Source of the DNA: Acidobacteriota bacterium
GTDB taxonomy: Bacteria; Acidobacteriota; Vicinamibacteria; Vicinamibacterales; CAVVIG01
Assembly (NCBI GenBank): GCA_043759095.1
Contig: JAYVMG010000617.1
Coordinates: forward strand, 1 to 35,152
DNA: 35,152 nt
Reading direction: 5' to 3'
Position 1 is the first letter of the stretch. Every line of letters begins with the position of its first letter. Shown here in pieces: positions 9,953 through 35,152 of this stretch. The position numbers were made by a program, and so were the translations under genes. Below the pieces are notes generated by a model that searched no databases, was not told where the DNA came from, and saw only the letters and a program-made list of their open reading frames with translations.

Positions 9953-10450
9953 CTTGAGAAATCTCAATAGCGACAATAAACGACTTAATATGACACTAAC
10001 GACCTATCGTGTCAATAAAGATACTAGTTTCGATCGTCGCAGATACAGCGACGGATCGCAATCGCTTCAGCCAGTCGTATTAAAGCTATGTATGACAGCG
10101 TTTTACGAGTGATCAGTGGTGAAGCCCACCAGTGGTTATCGGTGTGGCTGGAGTGTATCGATATGGATGCCGTCGCTGTATCGGGCGGGAAACGGTGCGG
10201 GGATCAGTCCTGGCGCGGGGACTCCGTGGGGGTCGGGGACGCGGGGGACGTCGGACGCTGATCCCCGGGAGGGTAGTCATCGCGCGAGCGATCGAAGAGG
10301 CCGTTGACGAAAAACGCGATGCCCATGATCACAAAGAACCCGCCGCGACGCCGATGAGCATCATCAGACCGAACCCTACGCCCATCAGCGTGATGCCGGC
10401 GCGCCGGCGCCTGCCGGGCGCGCTGATTAGACTGGAACATATCTATCCTG

Positions 10451-10510: not shown

Positions 10511-11057
10511 ATGGAAGATCTCCACGAGCGCGAGCTCGTCGAGCGCTGCCGGTCCGGTAACGAGCATGCGTTTCAGGAACTGGTCGATCGGTACAAGGAT
10601 CTGGTGTTCGCCTTGATCGCGCGAACGGTGGTCGATCGATCGCACGCCGAGGATCTGGCGCAGGACGTCTTCCTGCGCATCCACCGCGGGCTTCCGTATT
10701 TTCGCGGCGAAGCGCGTCTCTACCACCTGGATCTACCGCATCGTCGCGAACGTGTGTCTGCAGGAGCAGGCGCGACCGGCCGCCGCGGCCTCGCTCGACG
10801 ATCGGCGAACGCACGCGAAGGCAGTGATGGGAACACCCGATCGGCAGTTCGGGGATCTCGAACTGCGCGATCGACTCGAGAAAGCGATCGCGCGCCTGCC
10901 GGCGAACTACCGGCTGCTGATCGCCGCACACTATCTGCAGGGCGTGCAGTACGAGGGATTGGCCGAGGCGCTGCCGTTGCCACTCGGGACAGTCAAGACT
11001 CAGCTCTATCGGGCGAAGCAACAGTTGAGGCGGATGCTGGAAACGGATCTCAGATGA
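10511..11057 (+). pseudogene. ECF-type sigma-70 family factor interrupted by a single-nucleotide frameshift
   Basis: Region 2 lies in the frame of ORF 10511: MEDLHERELVERCRSGNEHAFQELVDRYKDLVFALIARTV..AEDLAQDVFLRIHRGLPYFRGEARL. The rest lies in the +1 frame from ~10719: (S)TTWIYRIVANVCLQE..LPANYRLLIAAHYLQGVQYEGLAEALPLPLGTVKTQLYRAKQQLR. Removing one nt near taccacc (10721-10727) restores FRGEARL(Y/T)TWIYRI. Confidence 0.8.
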
Positions 11058-11063
11058 TGAGTT

Positions 11064-11543
11064 ATGTTCTGCGACGAAGCGCTCGACGCGGTTGAAGCGA
11101 TCGCCGCCGGCGAGGTGATCCCGGACGGCCGCGTCGCCTCGCATCTGGCGACGTGCTCGAACTGCGCCGCGGCGCTGGTCAGCGCACGGCAACTCGAGAC
11201 GTCGTTACGCTCGCGCCCCGCGCCCGCGGCGCCGGCCCAGTTCACGGCGCGTACGCTGGCGCGCGTGCGGCGCGCGAGATGGCGCAGCGATCAGTTCCTC
11301 GACGTCGGCTTCAATCTCGCGGTGGGCGCGGTGCTCGTAGCGATGATGGGCGGCGTGTGGATGCTACTGCACCGCGCCGGGCTCGCCGGCGTCAGCCGCG
11401 ACGTGGTCGATCTGTTCGGCAGCGGCTTTTTCGTCTTCGCCAGGCGCGTGACGCCGTCGCTGCCGCTCTATGCCGGCGCCGCGCTGCTGCTCGTCAGCGC
11501 GCTCGGCATCTGGTGGTGGGCGGAGAGGGACGCGGCGCTGTGA
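11064..11543 (+). CDS. membrane-anchored anti-sigma factor, zf-HC2 (ZAS) type
   Basis: ATG 11064 lies 6 nt after the sigma stop. H-x3-C-x2-C motif HLATCSNC. Hydrophobic segments follow (FNLAVGAVLVAMMGGVWMLL, LYAGAALLLVSALGIWWW). Confidence 0.8.
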   Translation: MFCDEALDAVEAIAAGEVIPDGRVASHLATCSNCAAALVSARQLETSLRSRPAPAAPAQFTARTLARVRRARWRSDQFLDVGFNLAVGAVLVAMMGGVWMLLHRAGLAGVSRDVVDLFGSGFFVFARRVTPSLPLYAGAALLLVSALGIWWWAERDAAL

Positions 11544-12523
11544 GAGGGCTTAGGGCTCAGGGCCCAGGGCTCACGGCCGGATCGTCAGCCCTCAGCGTTC
11601 AGCGCTCGGCCCTGCCGGTCCGTCCCCTCCTGAAGTGGGCGGGCGGGAAACGCCAGCTGCTGCCCTACCTGCGGCGCTTTTACCCGCCGGCGTTCAACCG
11701 GTACATCGAACCGTTCTTCGGCAGCGGCGCCGTGTTTTTCGACTTGCATGGCGCCGGCCGGCTGCGCGACTGCGACGTCGTACTGATCGACTCGAACGCC
11801 GATCTGATCGGCTGCTACGAAACCGTGCGGACGCAGCCGGACGCCGTCGCGGACGAACTCGATGCTCTCGCCGTCGCGCACGCCAGCGGCGGGCAGGCGC
11901 ACTACTACGCGGTCCGGGACGAACAGTTCAACCCGATCCGCGATCGCCTCCGCGGCGGCGACGGCCGCATTGCGTATACGCCACAGCTGGCGGCGATGCT
12001 CATCTATCTGAATCGCACCGGGTTCAACGGGCTGTTTCGACTGAACGCGCGAGGCGCGTTCAACGTGCCGGCGGGCCGGTACGATCGGCCGAAGATCGCC
12101 GATCGCGAAAAGCTGGCGCGGGTCGCGGAGGCGTTCTCCGCCGCGCGGCTGGTCTGGGGATCGTTCGAATCAGTGCTCAGCCTCGCGACGCCTGGCGACT
12201 TCGTCTATTTTGATCCGCCGTACGCTCCCCTGAGCCGGACGGCGAATTTCACGTCGTATACGGCGCTGCGCTTCACCGCTGACGATCAACGGCGCCTGCA
12301 GCAGATCGTCATCGCGCTTGCCGGGCGGGGCTGTCATGTGTTGCTCAGTAACTCGACCGCCGACGAAATCGCGGCGCTCTACGATCGCAACGCGGATGCC
12401 CGCGCCGCCGGCCTGCGCGCGCTGCGCGTGCCGGCCCGACGGATGATCAACAGCAACGCGGCGCGCCGCGGGCCGGTCGAAGAATATCTGATCACCAACG
12501 TTGCGGTCGCCACCCGGGGCTGA
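11540..12523 (+). CDS. dam: Dam-family (D12 class) N6-adenine DNA methyltransferase, apparently orphan; start codon uncertain
   Basis: LLKWAGGKRQLLPYL, EPFFGSGAVFFDL (FxGxG), LNRTGFNGLFRLN, FVYFDPPYAP (DPPY). The only canonical in-frame start upstream of the conserved core is GTG 11540, which overlaps the anti-sigma stop as GTGA. That choice adds ~30 aa encoded by the heptamer array. The only later start candidates are CTG at 11612 or 11630. Confidence 0.8.
   Translation: MRGLRAQGPGLTAGSSALSVQRSALPVRPLLKWAGGKRQLLPYLRRFYPPAFNRYIEPFFGSGAVFFDLHGAGRLRDCDVVLIDSNADLIGCYETVRTQPDAVADELDALAVAHASGGQAHYYAVRDEQFNPIRDRLRGGDGRIAYTPQLAAMLIYLNRTGFNGLFRLNARGAFNVPAGRYDRPKIADREKLARVAEAFSAARLVWGSFESVLSLATPGDFVYFDPPYAPLSRTANFTSYTALRFTADDQRRLQQIVIALAGRGCHVLLSNSTADEIAALYDRNADARAAGLRALRVPARRMINSNAARRGPVEEYLITNVAVATRG
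11545..11614 (+). repeat. 10-unit in-register heptanucleotide array (AGGGCTY then AGCSCTC type)
   Basis: Units from 11545 in steps of 7: AGGGCTT AGGGCTC AGGGCCC AGGGCTC ACGGCCG GATCGTC AGCCCTC AGCGTTC AGCGCTC GGCCCTG. The first four units give G3N4G3N4G3N4G3 at 11546-11569. Confidence 0.85.
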
Positions 12524-12539
12524 CGCGCGTCAGCCCCGG
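12514..12539. terminator. 26-bp perfect palindrome; candidate bidirectional terminator between convergent genes
   Basis: CCGGGGCTGACGC|GCGTCAGCCCCGG. The dam TGA (12521-12523) and the stop of the convergent gene (tca 12530-12532) both lie inside the stem. No U-tract is present. Confidence 0.5.
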
Positions 12540-13123
12540 CGCACCAGTTCGACGTCCACAAAGCTCCCGGTATCCGGCCAGACGGCGGCGAGCCCGCGAT
12601 CGAGCGCCGTCGCCGCGCCCCACAACGCACGCGGCAGCAGCGTCCACGACTTCAGGCCGCCCGACAACCAGTAGCGTAGCGGCGTGTGTGGCTGATACCG
12701 TGCGATCGACAACCCGGGAAAGCGGCGCTCGAACTCCGCGCGATCGCGCCTGAAGACGATCCAGCAGAGCGCGCCGTTGGCGCCTGTCAACGGTCCCGTC
12801 GACTCGAACGTCCAGCCCGCGTCAGGTTGATACGGTTCGTGATGAATGAATCGCAGCACCGGCCCGCCGATCACGCCCGGATGCTCGTCGACGATCAGCA
12901 CGCGCCCACCGGGACGCAGCACGCGCTCGCACTCCGCAAGCATCGCGCCCACGTCGGGGATGTGATGAAAGACGTTGAACATCAGGATCGCGCGCAACGC
13001 GCCGGTCGCGAACGGCAGGCGCCGCGCATCCAGCACGAGATCAAGTCCCGCATACGGAAGGATGTCCGATGCGATCAGATCAGGAAGCAACTGACAGCGG
13101 CCGGGGTCGTCAAGTTCGCTCAT
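12530..13123 (-). CDS. class I SAM methyltransferase-like protein, N-terminally truncated with a degenerate motif I
   Basis: LVLDARRLPFATGALRAILMFNVFHHIPD..CERVLRPGGRVLIVDEHP..GPLTGANGALCWIVFRRDR. Start ATG 13123 sits in an ATGA overlap (tcat 13120-13123). Where relatives have LELGxGxG, this protein begins MSELDDPGR. Confidence 0.7.
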   Translation of the reverse strand: MSELDDPGRCQLLPDLIASDILPYAGLDLVLDARRLPFATGALRAILMFNVFHHIPDVGAMLAECERVLRPGGRVLIVDEHPGVIGGPVLRFIHHEPYQPDAGWTFESTGPLTGANGALCWIVFRRDRAEFERRFPGLSIARYQPHTPLRYWLSGGLKSWTLLPRALWGAATALDRGLAAVWPDTGSFVDVELVRRG

Positions 13124-13890
13124 CGCGAGACGCCGAGCCGCACGCGGAAGAACCCGATCGCCGTCATCTTGAGCAACATCCACCCGTGACGGAAGCAGCT
13201 GATGTTGGTTTCGCCGTAGGTGCGCGCGAGATAGCGGATCGGGAGATCGACGACACCCAACCCGAGAATCGCGGCGGGAAACAGCATCTCGAAATCGCCG
13301 AACGGATCGAAGTCGCCGAAATCGCGACGCCACGCCGTGAAGCGCGCGTAGTCGTGGCGCCCGAACAGTTTCGCGCCGCAGAGTGCGTCGCCGAGCCGCA
13401 CCGACAACACGCTGCTGAGCGCCTTCGCAAAGAGCACATTACCCAGCCGGTTGAGCGGCCGCATCGCGCCCGACTCGGTGCCGTACACCAGTCGGCTGCC
13501 GTTGACGAAATCCCCGAGGCCGTCGCGATACGCATTGTAGAAACGCGGCAGCGCCGACGGCGGAACGGTCAGGTCCGCATCGAGAATCGTGACGACGTCG
13601 CCGGTGGCCTGGCTGAAGCCGAGCCGCACGGCGTCACCTTTGCCCTTGCCGGTCTGCCGAAACGCGGCAATCTTGAACTCCACCGCGTAGCGCGGGATCA
13701 GGCGTTGAATCTCGTCCCACGTTCCGTCGTGTGAATGCCCCTCGATGAACACGACCTCCAGGCCAGGCAATTCGTCCTTTACCGCGCGCAGACCTTCGAG
13801 CGCACCCTCGATGTTGCCGCGCTCGTTGCACGTCGGCGCGAGGACGCTGATCGACGGCTGCTCCGTCGGCGTGATCTCTGGCGCCAGCAC
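13120..13890 (-). CDS. family 2 glycosyltransferase (Dpm1/polyprenol-phosphate glycosyltransferase-like)
   Basis: ISVLAPTCNERGNIEG..VVFIEGHSHDGT..GKGDAVRLGF..VVTILDADLT. Start assigned to GTG 13890 (MLAPEITPTEQPSISVLAP), 18 nt after the upstream stop. The ORF-track start 14118 overlaps the upstream gene by 210 nt. Confidence 0.8.
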   Translation of the reverse strand: MLAPEITPTEQPSISVLAPTCNERGNIEGALEGLRAVKDELPGLEVVFIEGHSHDGTWDEIQRLIPRYAVEFKIAAFRQTGKGKGDAVRLGFSQATGDVVTILDADLTVPPSALPRFYNAYRDGLGDFVNGSRLVYGTESGAMRPLNRLGNVLFAKALSSVLSVRLGDALCGAKLFGRHDYARFTAWRRDFGDFDPFGDFEMLFPAAILGLGVVDLPIRYLARTYGETNISCFRHGWMLLKMTAIGFFRVRLGVSR

Positions 13891-13907
13891 AACGATGGCG
13901 GCGAAGT

Positions 13908-14471
13908 TCAGATGGGCAGCAACGGGACGGCGGGAAGAATCTTGTTCAGGACGGACCCGAGGCCGAGCAGGCGCAGCGGTGAGTAGATCGCCTCGCGAAC
14001 CCGGACGACACGGAATCTGGCGAGACGCGCGACGTTCCCGAGGTCGGTAAACGTCACGAACGTCGTTGGGGCTTCGGGGCCACGCAATCCAAACCGCGAC
14101 GCCAGCTGATAGATCCACGCGTAGTACGGCTTAGAGAGAATCGCCACGATGCGTGATCCGCGGCCAAGAGACCCGCGCAAGGTGGTGAGCAATCCCTGGA
14201 TGTCGGACGAGTGGTTGAAATTACCGTTGAGGAGAACGGCATCGCGTCGCCCCGCCGCACGCGAGTCGGGCAGCGCGGCGCCGGGCGCCACGGCCATCTT
14301 CTCGGGACATGACACGAGGTTGAACAGCAGCCCATCGTCGTTCGGCAGGCGCGCGTACTGAATCAGGCGATCGTAGTACCGCGTCAGCGACGAGATCTCG
14401 GCTGCCAGCTGACAGTTCGCGCAGACGCGCCACCGCTTCCGGTCAGGCGCGTCAATCGCCGCGGCACGCAT
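13908..14471 (-). CDS. hypothetical protein (weak methyltransferase-like features)
   Basis: ORF with high third-position GC. ATG 14471 overlaps the GT-C stop by 20 nt. Segment AVLLNGNFNHSSDIQGLL..GSRIVAI is vaguely Rossmann-like. No firm motif was recognised. Confidence 0.45.
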   Translation of the reverse strand: MRAAAIDAPDRKRWRVCANCQLAAEISSLTRYYDRLIQYARLPNDDGLLFNLVSCPEKMAVAPGAALPDSRAAGRRDAVLLNGNFNHSSDIQGLLTTLRGSLGRGSRIVAILSKPYYAWIYQLASRFGLRGPEAPTTFVTFTDLGNVARLARFRVVRVREAIYSPLRLLGLGSVLNKILPAVPLLPI

Positions 14472-15960
14472 ACCCCAACAACAGCGCACCCTCGTTGCCC
14501 GGGACGTCTCTGACGTACGTCGGGACGTCCCGCTGATAGACGCGGGTACAGCCGTGGCGCATCATCCCCGGCACGAATGCCTCGTCGAAGACCCGGCTGC
14601 GCAATACCGCATCGAGGTGATAGAAAAACGTCGTTCCTGATCCGGCGTCACGATCGATGGTGCGGGTGACGTACTCGGACGTCATCGGCTGGCCGAAGCT
14701 GCCCCACGCCGGCCCCTCGTTCGCCAGCATCCGGATATCGGGATCATGACGCACCTCGTACCGCAGCCGCTGCGTGTCCCACCCGATGTCGAAGAACACA
14801 AGCTTCGTCCCCGGCATTCGCCGTAACTCGGCGGCCACCGTCCGCCACGGGCCTGTCGGCGCGTCGTGCGGCGCGCGCACAAACGAGAAGGTTGCCGCCA
14901 CCAGGATGCCTGCGGCGCACGCCGTCACGGCGACCTGCGCCCAACGCCCACCCGCGAGGCAGCGATCGGCGCCAAGACCCACCAGCATGCAGAGCGCCGG
15001 AAACGCCGGCGCCAGATACCGAAACGAGAATCCGGTGCGCCCGGCGAGAAAACCGTGCGCTCCCCCAATCTGAACCACGATGACAGTCGCCAGCACGGCG
15101 ATGAACGGGTCGCGATCGCGGACACCACGCCATACACCAACCACCGCCAGGCCGACCGCCAGGTAGCCGAGCCCGGCCGGCATCGCCAGCAGGTAGACCG
15201 GGCCGGAGATGTAGTAGCGCGGATTGACCATCGCCGCGAGCGTCACCCAAATCGCGGGACGTTCGAGCGCCGACTGAAACTGCAGGACGCCGATCGCGAG
15301 GGGGAGAGACAGCACCGCGACGACCGCCAGCGAGAGCAACAGCGGCGCGTGTCGATGGATCGCTCGTCGAGGGTCTGCCGTGACGGCCGTGAACGCGACT
15401 GCCGCCAGTGCGTAGATGCCCTGCGCGAGCAGGGTCCAGACTGCAGGCGGCTGCGAGTATGCCAGTAAGACGGTCGCCACGACGTACCAGACATACGGCA
15501 TGACGCCGTGCCGCGGGCCGCTGATCAGCGACGCGAACGACAAGCAGGACCACAGTGAGAACCAGACCCCGAGCGAGTACGGACGAAGCGTGGGCGTCAG
15601 ATACGAACTGAATCCCGAGAGGAGCAGGACCGCCGTCGCGACGATGCGCGCCAGCGGCGTCAGGCGTGGCGTGCGCAGCAGGGTGATGGCCGCGCAGACC
15701 ATGAACAGCAGCGGCAACAACCGCATGACCGGCTCCGTGTCTCCCAATCGAAGCCACTCGTGGAGCGCGATAAAGAAGAGCGGGGGGTGGCCCTGCGAGG
15801 TCACCGACAGGGTCAGGACATCGCGCAGCGGAGGGACCGCCATGAAGAACGACATCGCTTCGTCCAGAGTGAGTTCGCCGACCGTGAAGTGTGAGAAGGT
15901 GATCAGGAGATACGAGGCAACGACGCAGGTCGCCGAAATGAGCCAGGCCGGTCGGTTCAC
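14452..15960 (-). CDS. GT-C fold integral-membrane glycosyltransferase (ArnT/PMT, GT39/GT83-like)
   Basis: 502 aa with more than 10 hydrophobic segments. The first-loop acidic motif LTLDEAMSFF is followed by GHPPLFFIALHEWLRLG..MRLLPLLF, as in ArnT/PMT-like enzymes. Confidence 0.75.
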   Translation of the reverse strand: MNRPAWLISATCVVASYLLITFSHFTVGELTLDEAMSFFMAVPPLRDVLTLSVTSQGHPPLFFIALHEWLRLGDTEPVMRLLPLLFMVCAAITLLRTPRLTPLARIVATAVLLLSGFSSYLTPTLRPYSLGVWFSLWSCLSFASLISGPRHGVMPYVWYVVATVLLAYSQPPAVWTLLAQGIYALAAVAFTAVTADPRRAIHRHAPLLLSLAVVAVLSLPLAIGVLQFQSALERPAIWVTLAAMVNPRYYISGPVYLLAMPAGLGYLAVGLAVVGVWRGVRDRDPFIAVLATVIVVQIGGAHGFLAGRTGFSFRYLAPAFPALCMLVGLGADRCLAGGRWAQVAVTACAAGILVAATFSFVRAPHDAPTGPWRTVAAELRRMPGTKLVFFDIGWDTQRLRYEVRHDPDIRMLANEGPAWGSFGQPMTSEYVTRTIDRDAGSGTTFFYHLDAVLRSRVFDEAFVPGMMRHGCTRVYQRDVPTYVRDVPGNEGALLLGYACRGD

Positions 15961-16014
15961 GTTCCCCTCGGTGGCGGCGATCTTAACACGCGTCCGGCGA
16001 CCGACGTGTTACGC

Positions 16015-16524
16015 TCACGTTCGTACCGCGAAAGTGGCGGAATTGGCAGACGCGCCGGACTTAGGATCCGGTAGCCGAAAGGCTATGGGGGTTCGACTCC
16101 CCCCTTTCGCACCATGGCTCCATCCACCGATCGAGCGTGCAGGCGGCGAGGACGAACAGACACGGCTCGATGGGGACGCTGTCCCGCGGCGCTGCGAAGA
16201 GCAACGTGTGGACCACGTGACCGCAAGAGGAATCGCCCACACGTACGCGACCCGTGGTGACCACGGGATCACGCCAAGCGACAACAGCGCCGCCGCCAGG
16301 AGCAACGCGCGGAGGCTGATGACCGCTCGCGCGGTCGGCGACCGCGGCGGCGTGTCCGGCCCGCGGGGTTCGTCGCCGCCGGGCCACGGCCCCCATAATT
16401 CCCACAACACCTTGAACCATTGGACGAGAAAACCGGCGGGCGCTCCGGACAGCACGAAGCGCACATAATTCAATTGCTGCGGCCAGACGGCCGCGCGGGG
16501 CGACCGCAGACGCGCGGCGGTCAT
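16015..16524 (-). CDS. hypothetical membrane protein fragment; 3' part unreliable and probably part of a decayed GT-C-like gene
   Basis: ATG 16524 sits in an ATGA overlap with the preceding ORF. The first ~100 codons have high GC3 and hydrophobic stretches (ISLRALLLAAALLSLGVIPW). Beyond that the coding signal moves to another frame. Both frames run antisense into tRNA-Leu. Confidence 0.3.
   Translation of the reverse strand: MTAARLRSPRAAVWPQQLNYVRFVLSGAPAGFLVQWFKVLWELWGPWPGGDEPRGPDTPPRSPTARAVISLRALLLAAALLSLGVIPWSPRVAYVWAIPLAVTWSTRCSSQRRGTASPSSRVCSSSPPARSIGGWSHGAKGGSRTPIAFRLPDPKSGASANSATFAVRT
16028..16114 (+). tRNA. tRNA-Leu (anticodon UAG), class II with long variable arm, CCA encoded
   Basis: Acceptor stem GCGAAAG/CTTTCGC is a perfect 7 bp. 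Anticodon stem CCGGA/TCCGG with loop CTTAGGA. Variable arm TAGCCGAAAGGCTATG. T arm GGGGG-TTCGACT-CCCCC. Discriminator A followed by CCA. Confidence 0.93.
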
Positions 16525-18165: not shown

Positions 18166-18777
18166 ATGCGATATCCGCTTGAAGCCCGGAACCAGTTGGT
18201 CCCCATGGTGGTCGAACAGACCAACCGTGGCGAGCGCGCCTACGACATCTTTTCGCGCCTGCTCAAGGACAGCATCATCTTCGTCGGCACGCCGATTGAC
18301 GATCAGATCGCGAACCTCGTGATCGCCCAGATGCTCTTTCTCGAGGCCGAAGACCCCGACAAGGACATTTTGCTCTACATCAACAGCCCTGGTGGGTCGA
18401 TTACGGCTGGGATGGCCATCTACGACACGATGCAGTTCATCAAGCCGGACGTGCAGACCTACTGCATCGGTCAGGCAGCATCGATGGCGGCGGTTCTGCT
18501 GTCGGCGGGCGCGAAGGGGAAGCGGTTTTCACTCCCGAATTCACGGATTGTCATTCATCAGCCGCTGATGTCTGGATTGGGCGGCCAAGCGACCGATATT
18601 GATATTGCGGCTCGCGAGATCCTGCGCATGCGCGAGCGCCTCAACGAGATCCTGGTCCTCCATACCGGCCAGACCGTCAAACGCATCCAGGACGACACGG
18701 AACGCGACTACATCATGACGGCGGACCAGGGTAAGGAATACGGTATTATTGACGATGTCATCCGGAAACGGGCGTAA
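18166..18777 (+). CDS. clpP: ATP-dependent Clp protease proteolytic subunit
   Basis: [59 protein letters not shown]. Start ATG 18166 leaves a short propeptide as in E. coli ClpP. Confidence 0.93.
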
Positions 18778-18778
18778 C

Positions 18779-18813
18779 AGCTCAAAGGGCTTAGGGCGAA
18801 GGGCTTAGGGCTT
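18779..18813 (+). repeat. 5-unit heptanucleotide array filling the clpP-clpX spacer
   Basis: AGCTCAA AGGGCTT AGGGCGA AGGGCTT AGGGCTT, then AAGC and the clpX ATG at 18818. G3N4G3N4G3N4G3 spans 18787-18810. Confidence 0.85.
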
Positions 18814-18817
18814 AAGC

Positions 18818-33804: not shown

Positions 33805-33923
33805 GTGAACTGAGAACTGAGAACTGAGAACTCAGAACTGAGAAATCGGAGGCACTCTGCACCCTGCACTCTGCACCCTGCACCCTGCACCCTGCACCGT
33901 ACAAGATGCACCCTGCACGGTGT
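33805..33923 (-). repeat. 17-unit in-register heptanucleotide array filling the symporter-hydrolase spacer (plus strand GAGAACT x6, then ACCCTGC-type x10)
   Basis: From 33805 in steps of 7: GTGAACT GAGAACT GAGAACT GAGAACT CAGAACT GAGAAAT CGGAGGC ACTCTGC ACCCTGC ACTCTGC ACCCTGC ACCCTGC ACCCTGC ACCGTAC AAGATGC ACCCTGC ACGGTGT. The sense (minus) strand reads GCAGGGT repeats followed by AGTTCTC repeats. Confidence 0.88.
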
Positions 33924-35152
33924 CAGGCGCGCTTGCGCAACACCGCCGCGAGCGTCATGCTGCCTGTGACGTTGGCCGTCGTGCGGAACATGTCGGGGAT
34001 CGTGTCCACGGCAAGCAGGATGCCGATGCCGTCGATGGGCAGGTTGACGGCCGCGAGCACCGGCACCATCGCGATGATGCTGCCGCCGGGAACGCCGGGG
34101 ACGGCAAATGTGCTGAGGATCACCGTGAACACCATCGAGGCGAGCTGCGCGGGCGACAGCGTGGCCCCGTAGAGGCGCGCGAGAAACAGCACGCCGACCG
34201 GCATCGCCACCGCCGCACCGACGCGGAACACCGACGCGGCCAGCGGCAGGACGAAGCGCGACACGACAGGCGGCAGCTCCGCCCGTTCGGCGCTTTCGAC
34301 CATCGCCGGCATGGCCGCCAGCGACGACCGCGATGCGAACGCCACGGCTTGCGCCGGCGCGCACAACGATATGAAGGCCTTCGGCGACATCCCGCCCGCG
34401 ATGATCCCGATCGGATACAGCAGCACCACGCCGGCCAGGATTGTCAGCAACACGACGAGCACGATATACGCGATGACGGCGCCGGCAGCGGCAAGCCCGA
34501 GCTTCGAGGCCAGGGGCACCGCCAACGCGAACACGCCCACTGGTGCGAACTCGAGGATGCCGGCCACCAGTCGCTGCATCGCATCGGCAACGCCCTGCAC
34601 CACGCGCAACACGGCGTCACGCCGCTCGGCGGCCACACGCGCCAGTGCGATCCCGAACAACACGGAGAACACGATCACCGGCAGCATCGCGCCGTCAGCC
34701 GCCGCCTTCGTCACGTTCTGCGGCACGAGGTCGATGAACCACTGCGCGATCGCCGGCGTGCCTGCCGGCGCCGCCGCGGCGCCCGGCACGGCAGCCGCCG
34801 GTCCGCGCAGCGCCATCGCGGCCTGCTGATCGATCTGAATCCGCGCGAACGCAGGGGTCGCGATTGCGATGGTCATCACCGCGGTCACCGCGAGACAGGC
34901 GACGGCCATCACCGCCGCGCGCGCGCCGACGCGCCCAAGCGCGCCCGATGACGCCAGCGAGCCGACGCTGGCAATCAGCATCGACGCCACCAGCGGCATC
35001 ACGGTCATCCGGATCAGGTTGATGAAGATCGTGCCGACCGGCGCCATCACGGCAAGCAGCGTGGCGACGGCCGGAGATGTGGAGCCGGCCAGCGCGAGGC
35101 CGAGAGAGAAACCGGCGACGAGGCCGATGAGAACCCGGGAGGTCAGTGACAT
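33923..35152 (-). CDS. dicarboxylate/amino acid:cation symporter (DAACS, GltP/DctA-like)
   Basis: 409 aa. The ATG sits exactly at the window edge (35152). RMTVMPLVASMLI, FAPVGVFALAVP, SRSSLAAMPAMV, VPGVPGGSIIAMVPVL..LLAVDTIPDMFRTTANVTGS. Confidence 0.88.
   Translation of the reverse strand: MSLTSRVLIGLVAGFSLGLALAGSTSPAVATLLAVMAPVGTIFINLIRMTVMPLVASMLIASVGSLASSGALGRVGARAAVMAVACLAVTAVMTIAIATPAFARIQIDQQAAMALRGPAAAVPGAAAAPAGTPAIAQWFIDLVPQNVTKAAADGAMLPVIVFSVLFGIALARVAAERRDAVLRVVQGVADAMQRLVAGILEFAPVGVFALAVPLASKLGLAAAGAVIAYIVLVVLLTILAGVVLLYPIGIIAGGMSPKAFISLCAPAQAVAFASRSSLAAMPAMVESAERAELPPVVSRFVLPLAASVFRVGAAVAMPVGVLFLARLYGATLSPAQLASMVFTVILSTFAVPGVPGGSIIAMVPVLAAVNLPIDGIGILLAVDTIPDMFRTTANVTGSMTLAAVLRKRA

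Follow-up and report, generated by a model that had tools for sequence, protein, structure and literature searches.

Where does translation of a DNA adenine methyltransferase begin when a repeat tract separates its conserved core from the canonical start codons in its frame? The question is raised by a 35,152-nt stretch of DNA from an Acidobacteriota bacterium (Vicinamibacterales; CAVVIG01; GCA_043759095.1, contig JAYVMG010000617.1, forward strand 1-35,152), hereafter the window, in which heptamers fill the spacer between a putative anti-sigma gene and the methyltransferase gene dam. An earlier reading, made from the letters alone (the sequence-only reading), had offered two explanations: (a) Dam is made by coupled translation through the repeat from a GTG that overlaps the anti-sigma stop, as in a phase-variable methyltransferase, or (b) the repeat is an untranslated leader with a G-quadruplex (G4) and Dam starts at a CTG. 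We compared the locus with its relatives. The reading that we favour, and hold with moderate confidence, is that a decayed heptamer hairpin is read through from GTG 11540 as an unconstrained tail of Dam, with no phase switch and with the G4 motif incidental.

The tract at 11545-11613 is an imperfect hairpin of inverted heptamer arrays (Table 1). Its left arm begins 2 nt after the TGA that ends at 11543, and Tandem Repeats Finder (TRF) describes it as an array of period 7 with 84% matches and the consensus AGGGCTC. The two-unit pattern AGGGCTNAGGGCT, with at most two mismatches, occurs 11 times in the window versus 1.4 expected, and 0 of 100 shuffles reached 11. The right arm (11583-11613) is the reverse complement of the left; the arms proper, 11545-11575 and 11583-11613, are 31 nt long and 71% complementary. 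Four G3N4 x4 motifs were counted in the window versus 0.8 expected, two of them formed by AGGGCTN arrays. The heptamer array and the G3N4 x4 motif that the sequence-only reading had placed before dam are thus present, at 11545-11577 and 11546-11569. Its 70-nt heptamer array, however, is periodic in the left half; the second half is the inverted arm, which had been overlooked. The 7-residue periodic peptide was read correctly, and the frame from GTG 11540 translates to VRGLRAQGPGLTAGSSALSVQRSALPVRPLLKWAGGK.

We examined the start codons available to dam. The anti-sigma open reading frame (ORF) ends ...GCG CTG TGA, and GTG 11540 overlaps that stop. From this GTG the codons are GTG AGA GGG CTT AGG GCT CAG GGC CCA GGG CTC ACG GCC GGA TCG TCA and, onward, GCC CTC AGC GTT CAG CGC TCG GCC CTG CCG GTC CGT CCC CTC CTG AAG TGG, with no ATG, GTG or TTG between 11543 and the codons of LLKW (11627). 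GTG 11540 had been taken for the sole upstream start. The GTGA overlap and the lack of any start downstream stand, but the dam frame is open upstream to 11153 and holds further in-frame GTGs at 11513 and 11516, inside the anti-sigma gene. Starts at GTG 11513, 11516 or 11540 would all read through the array. A Shine-Dalgarno-like (SD-like) sequence, GGAGAGGGA, is suggestive support for a start at GTG 11540. It is encoded by GAG AGG GAC, where relatives have GAA/GAG CGG GAT, and AGG makes up 1.8% of the Arg codons in the confident genes of the window.

Does the same arrangement occur in other genomes? The relatives' DNA was retrieved by the Dam core alone, so the sample is independent of N-terminal gene calls; the nearest genomes are metagenome-assembled genomes of Acidobacteriota / Vicinamibacterales. 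In nearly all close relatives the spacer from the anti-sigma stop to Arg-Pro-LLKW is occupied by a hairpin of inverted heptamer arrays. At least six different units are in use; those of the two arms (left/right) are AGGGCTN / NAGCCCT in the window and loci L082 and L162, ATGGCTN in L083 and partly in L002 and L084, GGTAATC / GATTACC in L001, L081, L085, L088 and L095, GCGGATT / AATCCGC in L086, L087, L090 and L161, AGATTGA / TCAATCT in L091, and TTGGTGA / TCACCAA in L094. Predicted folds of the relatives' spacers reach z scores of -4 to -12 (-6.6 in L171, with near-perfect arms), versus -1.7 for the window spacer.

Three N-terminal states are found within the Dam cluster of at least 90% identity to which the window belongs: the window's own peptide (proteins P0123, P0125, P0126 and P0130), the GGTAATC type (MRIAADRPIDSPIAKSPGYPIRP...), and MASRPLLKW in L161, which is of the GCGGATT type and has an ATG five codons before LLKW. 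Among the 120 best database homologues, N-terminal extensions range from 0 to 71 residues. The longer ones mostly translate the resident array (SAIRNPQ..., PITRSPDHPIRP..., SAIRNPQSAIRNPQ, PINHPITRSPDHPIRP, RGLRAKGSGL...SALSPQPSAL). Because the unit differs even where Dam is more than 90% identical, conservation extends to neither the peptide nor the G-runs; on this comparison, the recurring feature is the architecture. The sequence-only reading had named two patterns in orthologues that would speak against it. A conserved protein-level extension is not what the relatives show; the longer extensions mostly follow the resident array unit. A canonical start close before LLKWAGGK does occur, in relatives with an ATG at codon -5, but array hairpins are present there too.

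An upstream start is supported by its retention. A canonical in-frame start before the first upstream stop was present in the dam frame at 20 of 20 non-redundant loci and in the +2 control frame at 5 of 20; the +1 control frame is uninformative because CTGAAG contains TGA. Thirteen of the 20 loci have no start within six codons except a TTG at a Leu codon of LLKW. Each of these 13 has a start farther off, at a distance of 15-37 codons and often only a few codons from the last stop. In the GGTAATC type, an ATG or GTG in the loop lies exactly 23 codons before LLKW in many homologues. Overlap starts (GTGA, ATGA or TTGA), which are the starts of the AGGGCTN type, are also found at L162, L170-L175 and L082, with the frame open across both arms. 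On balance, a canonical upstream start appears to be retained by selection, in the window GTG 11540 or one of the two GTGs farther up.

Array length and start position both vary among relatives. In AGGGCT-type loci, the distance from the WWW codons near the end of the anti-sigma gene to LLKW is 116, 131, 128, 74 or 62 nt, in every case 2 mod 3 and with the frame open from the overlap start. We discounted the lengths 131, 128, 74 and 62 nt (L170-L175) because these loci were found via gene calls that already included the extension. L002 and L084 have one left-arm heptamer fewer (109 vs 116 nt), which puts the overlap start out of frame, and both carry an ATG five codons before LLKW (CAGCCATG or GGTCATG, where the window has CAGCCCTG). 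Proteins P0003, P0014, P0029, P0095, P0121 and P0129 begin at the position equivalent to 11612. Codon -5 is CTG in L162, L175 and L082 and CTT in L170-L174. All three relative frames between dam and the anti-sigma stop occur among the relatives; a constraint on the frame would be confined to lineages without a near start. The part of explanation (a) that has dam translated through the repeat from the GTGA is favoured by these comparisons, by the 20/20 versus 5/20 count and by the ATG of the shorter arrays.

The downstream gene encodes a D12-class adenine methyltransferase. It matches Pfam PF02086 at 169 bits (cut-off 22; E = 2.1e-49), with the aligned part opening at residue 33 of the ORF that starts at the GTG. 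Among solved structures its best matches are DpnM (2dpm), with E = 1.6e-53, and E. coli Dam (2g1p), with E = 7e-38. The translation holds the S-adenosylmethionine-binding F-G-x-G (EPFFGSGAVFF) and the catalytic DPPY (FVYFDPPYAPL). From its similarity to DpnM and Dam, the enzyme is predicted to methylate GATC, a site counted 375 times in the window (406 expected). Between the window and L162 (synonymous divergence, dS, 0.37) the ratio of nonsynonymous to synonymous rates (dN/dS) is 0.057 for the core, indicating strong purifying selection, versus 0.48 for the N-terminal extension, whose substitution rate is about the synonymous rate and which shows 0 indels. The core does begin at LLKWAGGK (about 11627) as proposed, although conservation among relatives starts earlier, at Arg-Pro (11621), two codons ahead of LLKW.

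Taken together, these results suggest the following course of events. The tract is a decayed inverted pair, (AGGGCTN)n, short loop, (NAGCCCT)n, of an intergenic class that sits directly after stop codons between co-oriented genes. Such hairpins fill the anti-sigma/dam spacer in this lineage and turn over quickly, leaving close relatives with unrelated units. Heptamer arrays without stops are open in all three frames and so can be read through from any upstream start. The near start has been lost in the window lineage, which has CTG 11612 where relatives have ATG, and the length of the array holds GTG 11540 in frame with dam. Dam would then most probably be made by initiation or re-initiation at the GTGA overlap, carrying a 29-residue low-complexity N-terminal tail, and the sole constraints on the tract would be an open frame and a start codon. 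The anatomy of the tract, the turnover of its units, the retention of a start, the absence of array polymorphism and the purifying selection on the core are direct observations.

Several points weigh against read-through from GTG 11540. The 29-codon extension has a geometric mean relative codon frequency of 0.19, below all 453 genic 29-codon windows (median 0.47); it uses AGA and AGG (0.9% and 1.8% of Arg codons), and its guanine-plus-cytosine (GC) content is flat across codon positions. An untranslated spacer, too, would have such non-genic codon usage and flat GC. CTG 11612 occupies the exact orthologous position of the relatives' ATG. Gene callers differ by 29-30 codons on the start of dam, and in a sister clade, on the same DNA, the JGI and NCBI calls begin at the second Leu codon (TTG). 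The 20-locus test is phylogenetically non-independent, with about 6-8 independent lineages that lack a near start; a GTG arises automatically wherever TGA follows a Leu codon with a final G; the SD-like motif is seen in a single lineage; and the in-frame length variants L170-L175 are ascertainment-biased. The start codon that the ribosome uses is inferred from comparison. The calls at the second Leu of LLKW (P0132, P0016, HEV8211212.1) were considered as proof that Dam can start at no other place; the frame in their DNA is open to an upstream GTG, and the called position reflects the caller's choice and speaks neither for nor against such a start. A pseudogene or an assembly error behind the missing start was rejected as well, since five assemblies agree and the core dN/dS is 0.06.

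The same facts can be read the other way, with the array an untranslated leader or spacer and Dam starting, at normal length and low efficiency, at CTG 11612 or at CTG 11630, the second Leu of LLKW and the orthologue of the sister-clade TTG. We regard this as unlikely. CTG 11612 does align with the ATG of L002, L084 and L161, and CTG is also found at codon -5 in L162, L175 and L082; the extension has non-genic codon usage and evolves nearly neutrally; and in solved structures of Dam and DpnM 5-13 residues separate the motif from the N-terminus. On the other hand, L170-L174 have CTT at this codon, no SD-like sequence precedes CTG 11612 or CTG 11630 in what is a C-rich region, and CTG is a very poor initiator in bacteria. 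If non-canonical starts were in use, relatives without an upstream canonical start would be expected, yet every one of the 20 loci keeps one, four times as many as in the control frame. Whichever codon is used, the hairpin, the G4 or both might form a functional regulatory module for dam, a proposal that is compatible with either start and that we consider decidedly doubtful. For example, the right arm or stem base could sequester the dam start, and the stem could be opened by ribosomes that finish the anti-sigma gene at its stop, which would couple dam translation to that gene; alternatively, the G-rich arm could form a G4 that modulates read-through. Arm complementarity is preserved at the locus while the unit changes across six families, the -5 ATG of L161, L084 and L002 lies within the 3' base of the predicted stem, GGTAATC-type hairpins have an in-frame GTG or ATG in the loop, conserved 23 codons before LLKW, and the four-unit G3 motif resembles the Xanthomonas class discussed below. 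Against this, the hairpin of the window has decayed: the fold of 11530-11640 has z = -0.05 relative to dinucleotide shuffles, the spacer alone reaches z = -1.7, and neither value supports a selected structure in the window copy. In a test of G-U wobble asymmetry the plus strand was more stable at just 5 of 19 loci, and without a bias toward the sense RNA, arm complementarity may reflect the DNA-level origin of the array as much as an RNA function; the inverted arms are possibly a product of array genesis rather than of selection. Most orthologous arrays (GGTAATC, GCGGATT, TTGGTGA, AGATTGA, ATGGCTN) have no G-runs. Rfam searches found no family at the site (gathering threshold over the whole window; E <= 1 over 11400-11750), the only hit being the tRNA at 16028-16111, and promoter and terminator scans of 11300-11800 returned no sites. 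The hairpin is not an intrinsic terminator, because it lacks a T-run. As a conserved arrangement, the G4 leader and CTG start of explanation (b) find no support, given the lack of G-runs elsewhere, the weak fold and the CTT of L170-L174. Judging from the relatives' units, the G4 motif is an incidental by-product of the unit sequence.

A phase-variation switch, in which slipped-strand gain or loss of one 7-nt unit would shift the GTG 11540 frame and turn Dam off, is very improbable. The setting is right for one: a unit of 7 nt does not divide by 3, the tract separates the core from its sole canonical start if that is GTG 11540, and lineages do differ by one unit on an evolutionary scale (116 vs 109 nt). 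However, the array is short and imperfect (4.7 copies, 84% match), with adjacent units sharing at most 6 of 7 bases; here the sequence-only reading had itself noted that imperfect units argue against high-frequency slippage, and indeed no two adjacent units are identical over 7 nt. Four further assemblies (L166-L169), each from another sample and sharing 99.1-99.4% identity with the window across about 5 kb, have base-for-base the same array, yet they differ from the window at two nearby tandem repeats, one of 6 nt and one of about 36 nt. They carry one extra CGGCTG copy in dam (about 12150; AARLRLVWG vs AARLVWG) and one extra unit of about 36 nt at 10192-10228, beside a G-rich motif at 10217-10247. 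Where the array is shorter by one unit, the lineage brings its own ATG, which leaves neither state off. The window and L162 show no indels at dS 0.37, dam is syntenic and under strong purifying selection, and for the comparable Xanthomonas repeats a part in phase variation was considered unlikely (Rehm et al. 2015, PMC4692102). The description as a classical phase-variable methyltransferase finds no support, in view of the imperfect units, the lack of array polymorphism in L166-L169 and the core dN/dS; counting units in related genomes, as had been proposed, gave an unchanged number in L166-L169 and, between lineages, a one-unit change that comes with an ATG. Finally, the dam spacer of this Vicinamibacterales-like clade could be a dedicated, rapidly renewing inverted-heptamer module. 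Its unit would be swapped between strains more than 90% identical in Dam, whereas its complementarity would always be kept, as would an in-frame start, whether this lies in the loop, in the base of the stem or on the upstream stop. We think it improbable that the locus goes this far. If it did, a process that generates and swaps inverted heptamer arrays would be at work, the hairpin would gate dam translation, for example coupled to the anti-sigma gene, and array-derived peptides would be repeatedly recruited as N-terminal sequence.

Table 1. Features of the window considered in the text.
Feature	Coordinates	Strand	Remarks
ECF (extracytoplasmic function) sigma-factor gene	10511..11057	+	Upstream of the anti-sigma ORF; frameshifted in the window lineage
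Putative anti-sigma ORF, 159 aa	11064..11543	+	Ends ...WWWAERDAAL-TGA; stop overlaps the candidate dam start
SD-like GGAGAGGGA	11522..11530	+	10 nt before GTG 11540; inside the upstream ORF
GTG, candidate dam start	11540..11542	+	Overlaps TGA 11541-11543 as GTGA
Left arm, tandem heptamers (AGGGCTN) x4.7	11545..11577	+	TRF; pattern enrichment
G3N4G3N4G3N4G3 motif, potential G4	11546..11569	+	From four AGGGCTN units
Loop	11578..11582	+	Arms proper leave 7 nt, 11576-11582; inverted-repeat search and folds
Right arm, decayed TCAGCCC-like x4 (TCAGCCC TCAGCGT TCAGCGC TCGGCCC)	11583..11613	+	Inverted-repeat search
CTG, alternative weak start	11612..11614	+	At the ATG position of L002, L084, L161 (M[SA]SRPLLKW)
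Conserved Dam core, LLKWAGGK to stop	11627..12523	+	D12-class N6-adenine DNA methyltransferase
Second array (AGGGCTT) x4	18785..18814	+	Spacer between genes corresponding to relatives' clpP and clpX
(GAACTGA) x5.4 and (GCACCCT) x9.6 arrays	33807..33918		Spacer between two minus-strand ORFs

The window holds further arrays of the same kind. The one at 18785 begins 9 nt after the upstream stop TAA (18774-18776) and ends just before ATG 18818, and at 18787-18810 it also yields a G3N4 x4 motif. In the clpP-clpX spacer of L163 and L164 a single AAGGGCTTAGC is found where the window has four units, which indicates that this array expanded in place. The arrays at 33807-33918, read in the minus-strand sense, consist of (AGGGTGC) x9.6 right after the stop of the ORF at 33923-35152, followed by (TCAGTTC) x5 before the next start. 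Of the 42 tandem arrays in the 172 kb sampled (the window and close loci), 31 have a period of 7; most of the arrays come from the dam-upstream site. The dam tract is one of a repeat class in this genome and is not specific to dam.

The gene order in relatives is ECF sigma, its 159-aa partner (the putative anti-sigma), dam, a tRNA-like sequence, trigger factor, ClpP and ClpX. No restriction enzyme gene was found near dam, which is a syntenic orphan gene. The 159-aa partner of the sigma gene is conserved in relatives, and a Pfam search of the ORF gave no significant match; an anti-sigma role is suggested by its position and an HxxxCxxC motif. The sigma gene of the window carries a 1-nt insertion near 10722 (CTCTACCACC vs CTCT-CCACC in the intact L161 and L163), so that its regions now lie in different frames, with Pfam Sigma70_r2 in 10511-10720 and Sigma70_r4_2 in 10752-11054. 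The insertion is also present in the independent assembly L166 and, given this, is probably real.

Downstream of dam, about 3.5 kb of minus-strand ORFs (12524-16027) separate the gene from the tRNA at 16028-16111; their counterparts in L166 have methyltransferase and glycosyltransferase domains. In L163, L171 and L175 the tRNA-like sequence and trigger factor directly follow dam, and the block is therefore an insertion or a lineage-specific island. Elsewhere the surroundings of dam differ further. In L001 (JANYHS010000047.1, upstream of 3001), whose Dam is 95% identical, the sigma / anti-sigma pair is missing, and dam with its GGTAATC-type hairpin directly follows sequence homologous to about 10150-10200 of the window. 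In L087, GCAATGTCTCGCCGCTCCTGAAGTGG at about 2480-2500 resembles the start ATG TCT CGC CCG CTC CTG of relatives minus one C; the ATG is thus out of frame, and the remaining start is a far upstream ATG, one codon past a stop. In more distant Vicinamibacterales (L008-L013, L106, L111), TACAAT or TGGTAACAT boxes lie 6-8 nt before the GTG of dam, which suggests leaderless dam transcripts in these lineages.

As we judge it, the tract belongs, as an ordinary case, to a repeat class already described, and is of interest chiefly for annotation and as a series in which heptamers turn over. Across the clade, stop-free heptamer arrays silently enter predicted proteins as 7-residue periodic "N-terminal domains", and recognising the repeat hairpins prevents their being misread as conserved protein segments or as phase-variation tracts. 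The relatives form a natural series: the flanking genes are constant, and what changes is the unit family (six of them), the length of the array by one unit, and the start codon. Such a series could be used to study the origin of heptamers, their inverted pairing and their effect on expression of the downstream gene.

How does the tract compare with known systems? Heptameric repeats are reported to be over-represented among bacterial simple-sequence repeats. Xanthomonas and Nostoc have G-rich intergenic arrays of GGGAATC / GGGGAYT in which four units are preferred (Rehm et al. 2015, PMC4692102); each Xanthomonas genome holds 70-75 inverted pairs that can form stem-loops, and a role in phase variation was judged unlikely (PMC4692102). 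Like these repeats, the dam array has 7-nt units with a G3 run in about four copies (PMC4692102), and the window arrays lie between co-oriented ORFs with the G-rich strand as the sense strand, and start within 50 bp after a stop (the arrays at 11545 and 18785 and that behind the 33923-35152 ORF). The Xanthomonas/Nostoc repeats often pair with an inverted array into a stem-loop, as do the 71% complementary arms here, and show no association with contingency genes. Unlike them, the element before dam comes from the phylum Acidobacteriota and has the unit AGGGCTN, non-G-rich units occupy the orthologous site of relatives, and the dam array lies inside the sole canonical reading frame of the downstream gene.

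A second parallel is the TAACTGA direct repeats, found in intergenic regions of Beggiatoaceae, Cyanobacteria and Bacteroidetes just before start codons and sometimes absorbed at ORF ends (MacGregor 2015, PMC4679880). Like these and the cyanobacterial short tandemly repeated repetitive (STRR) heptamers, the window arrays lie near starts or overlap stops, where N- or C-terminal absorption gives 7-residue periodic peptides, and the (GAACTGA) array at 33807 resembles the TAACTGA repeats of Beggiatoaceae and cyanobacteria in its unit. The TAACTGA class consists mostly of direct arrays with one dominant unit, whereas the window locus has many unit families and inverted pairs.

Phase-variable methyltransferases (Mod, phasevarions) also have a non-triplet repeat between the start codon and the methyltransferase domain. 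The window differs from them in its short imperfect tract, in the lack of length polymorphism among strains and in the alternative start of the lineages with another unit number, and in its enzyme, a syntenic orphan Dam whose host is a free-living bacterium of the soil. The overlap of GTG 11540 with TGA 11541-11543, with GGAGAGGGA upstream, resembles ATGA / GTGA translational coupling; a difference is that this GTGA follows automatically from a conserved C-terminal Leu codon and TGA, and re-initiation is predicted. We found no Acidobacteria-specific description of heptamer repeats in the literature. On each sequence-level feature tested, the element fits the intergenic heptamer class. What is new at this locus is the phylum and the unit, the fact that one orthologous site has had its unit exchanged wholesale, and the array sequence that a housekeeping gene has apparently taken up as its 5' end.

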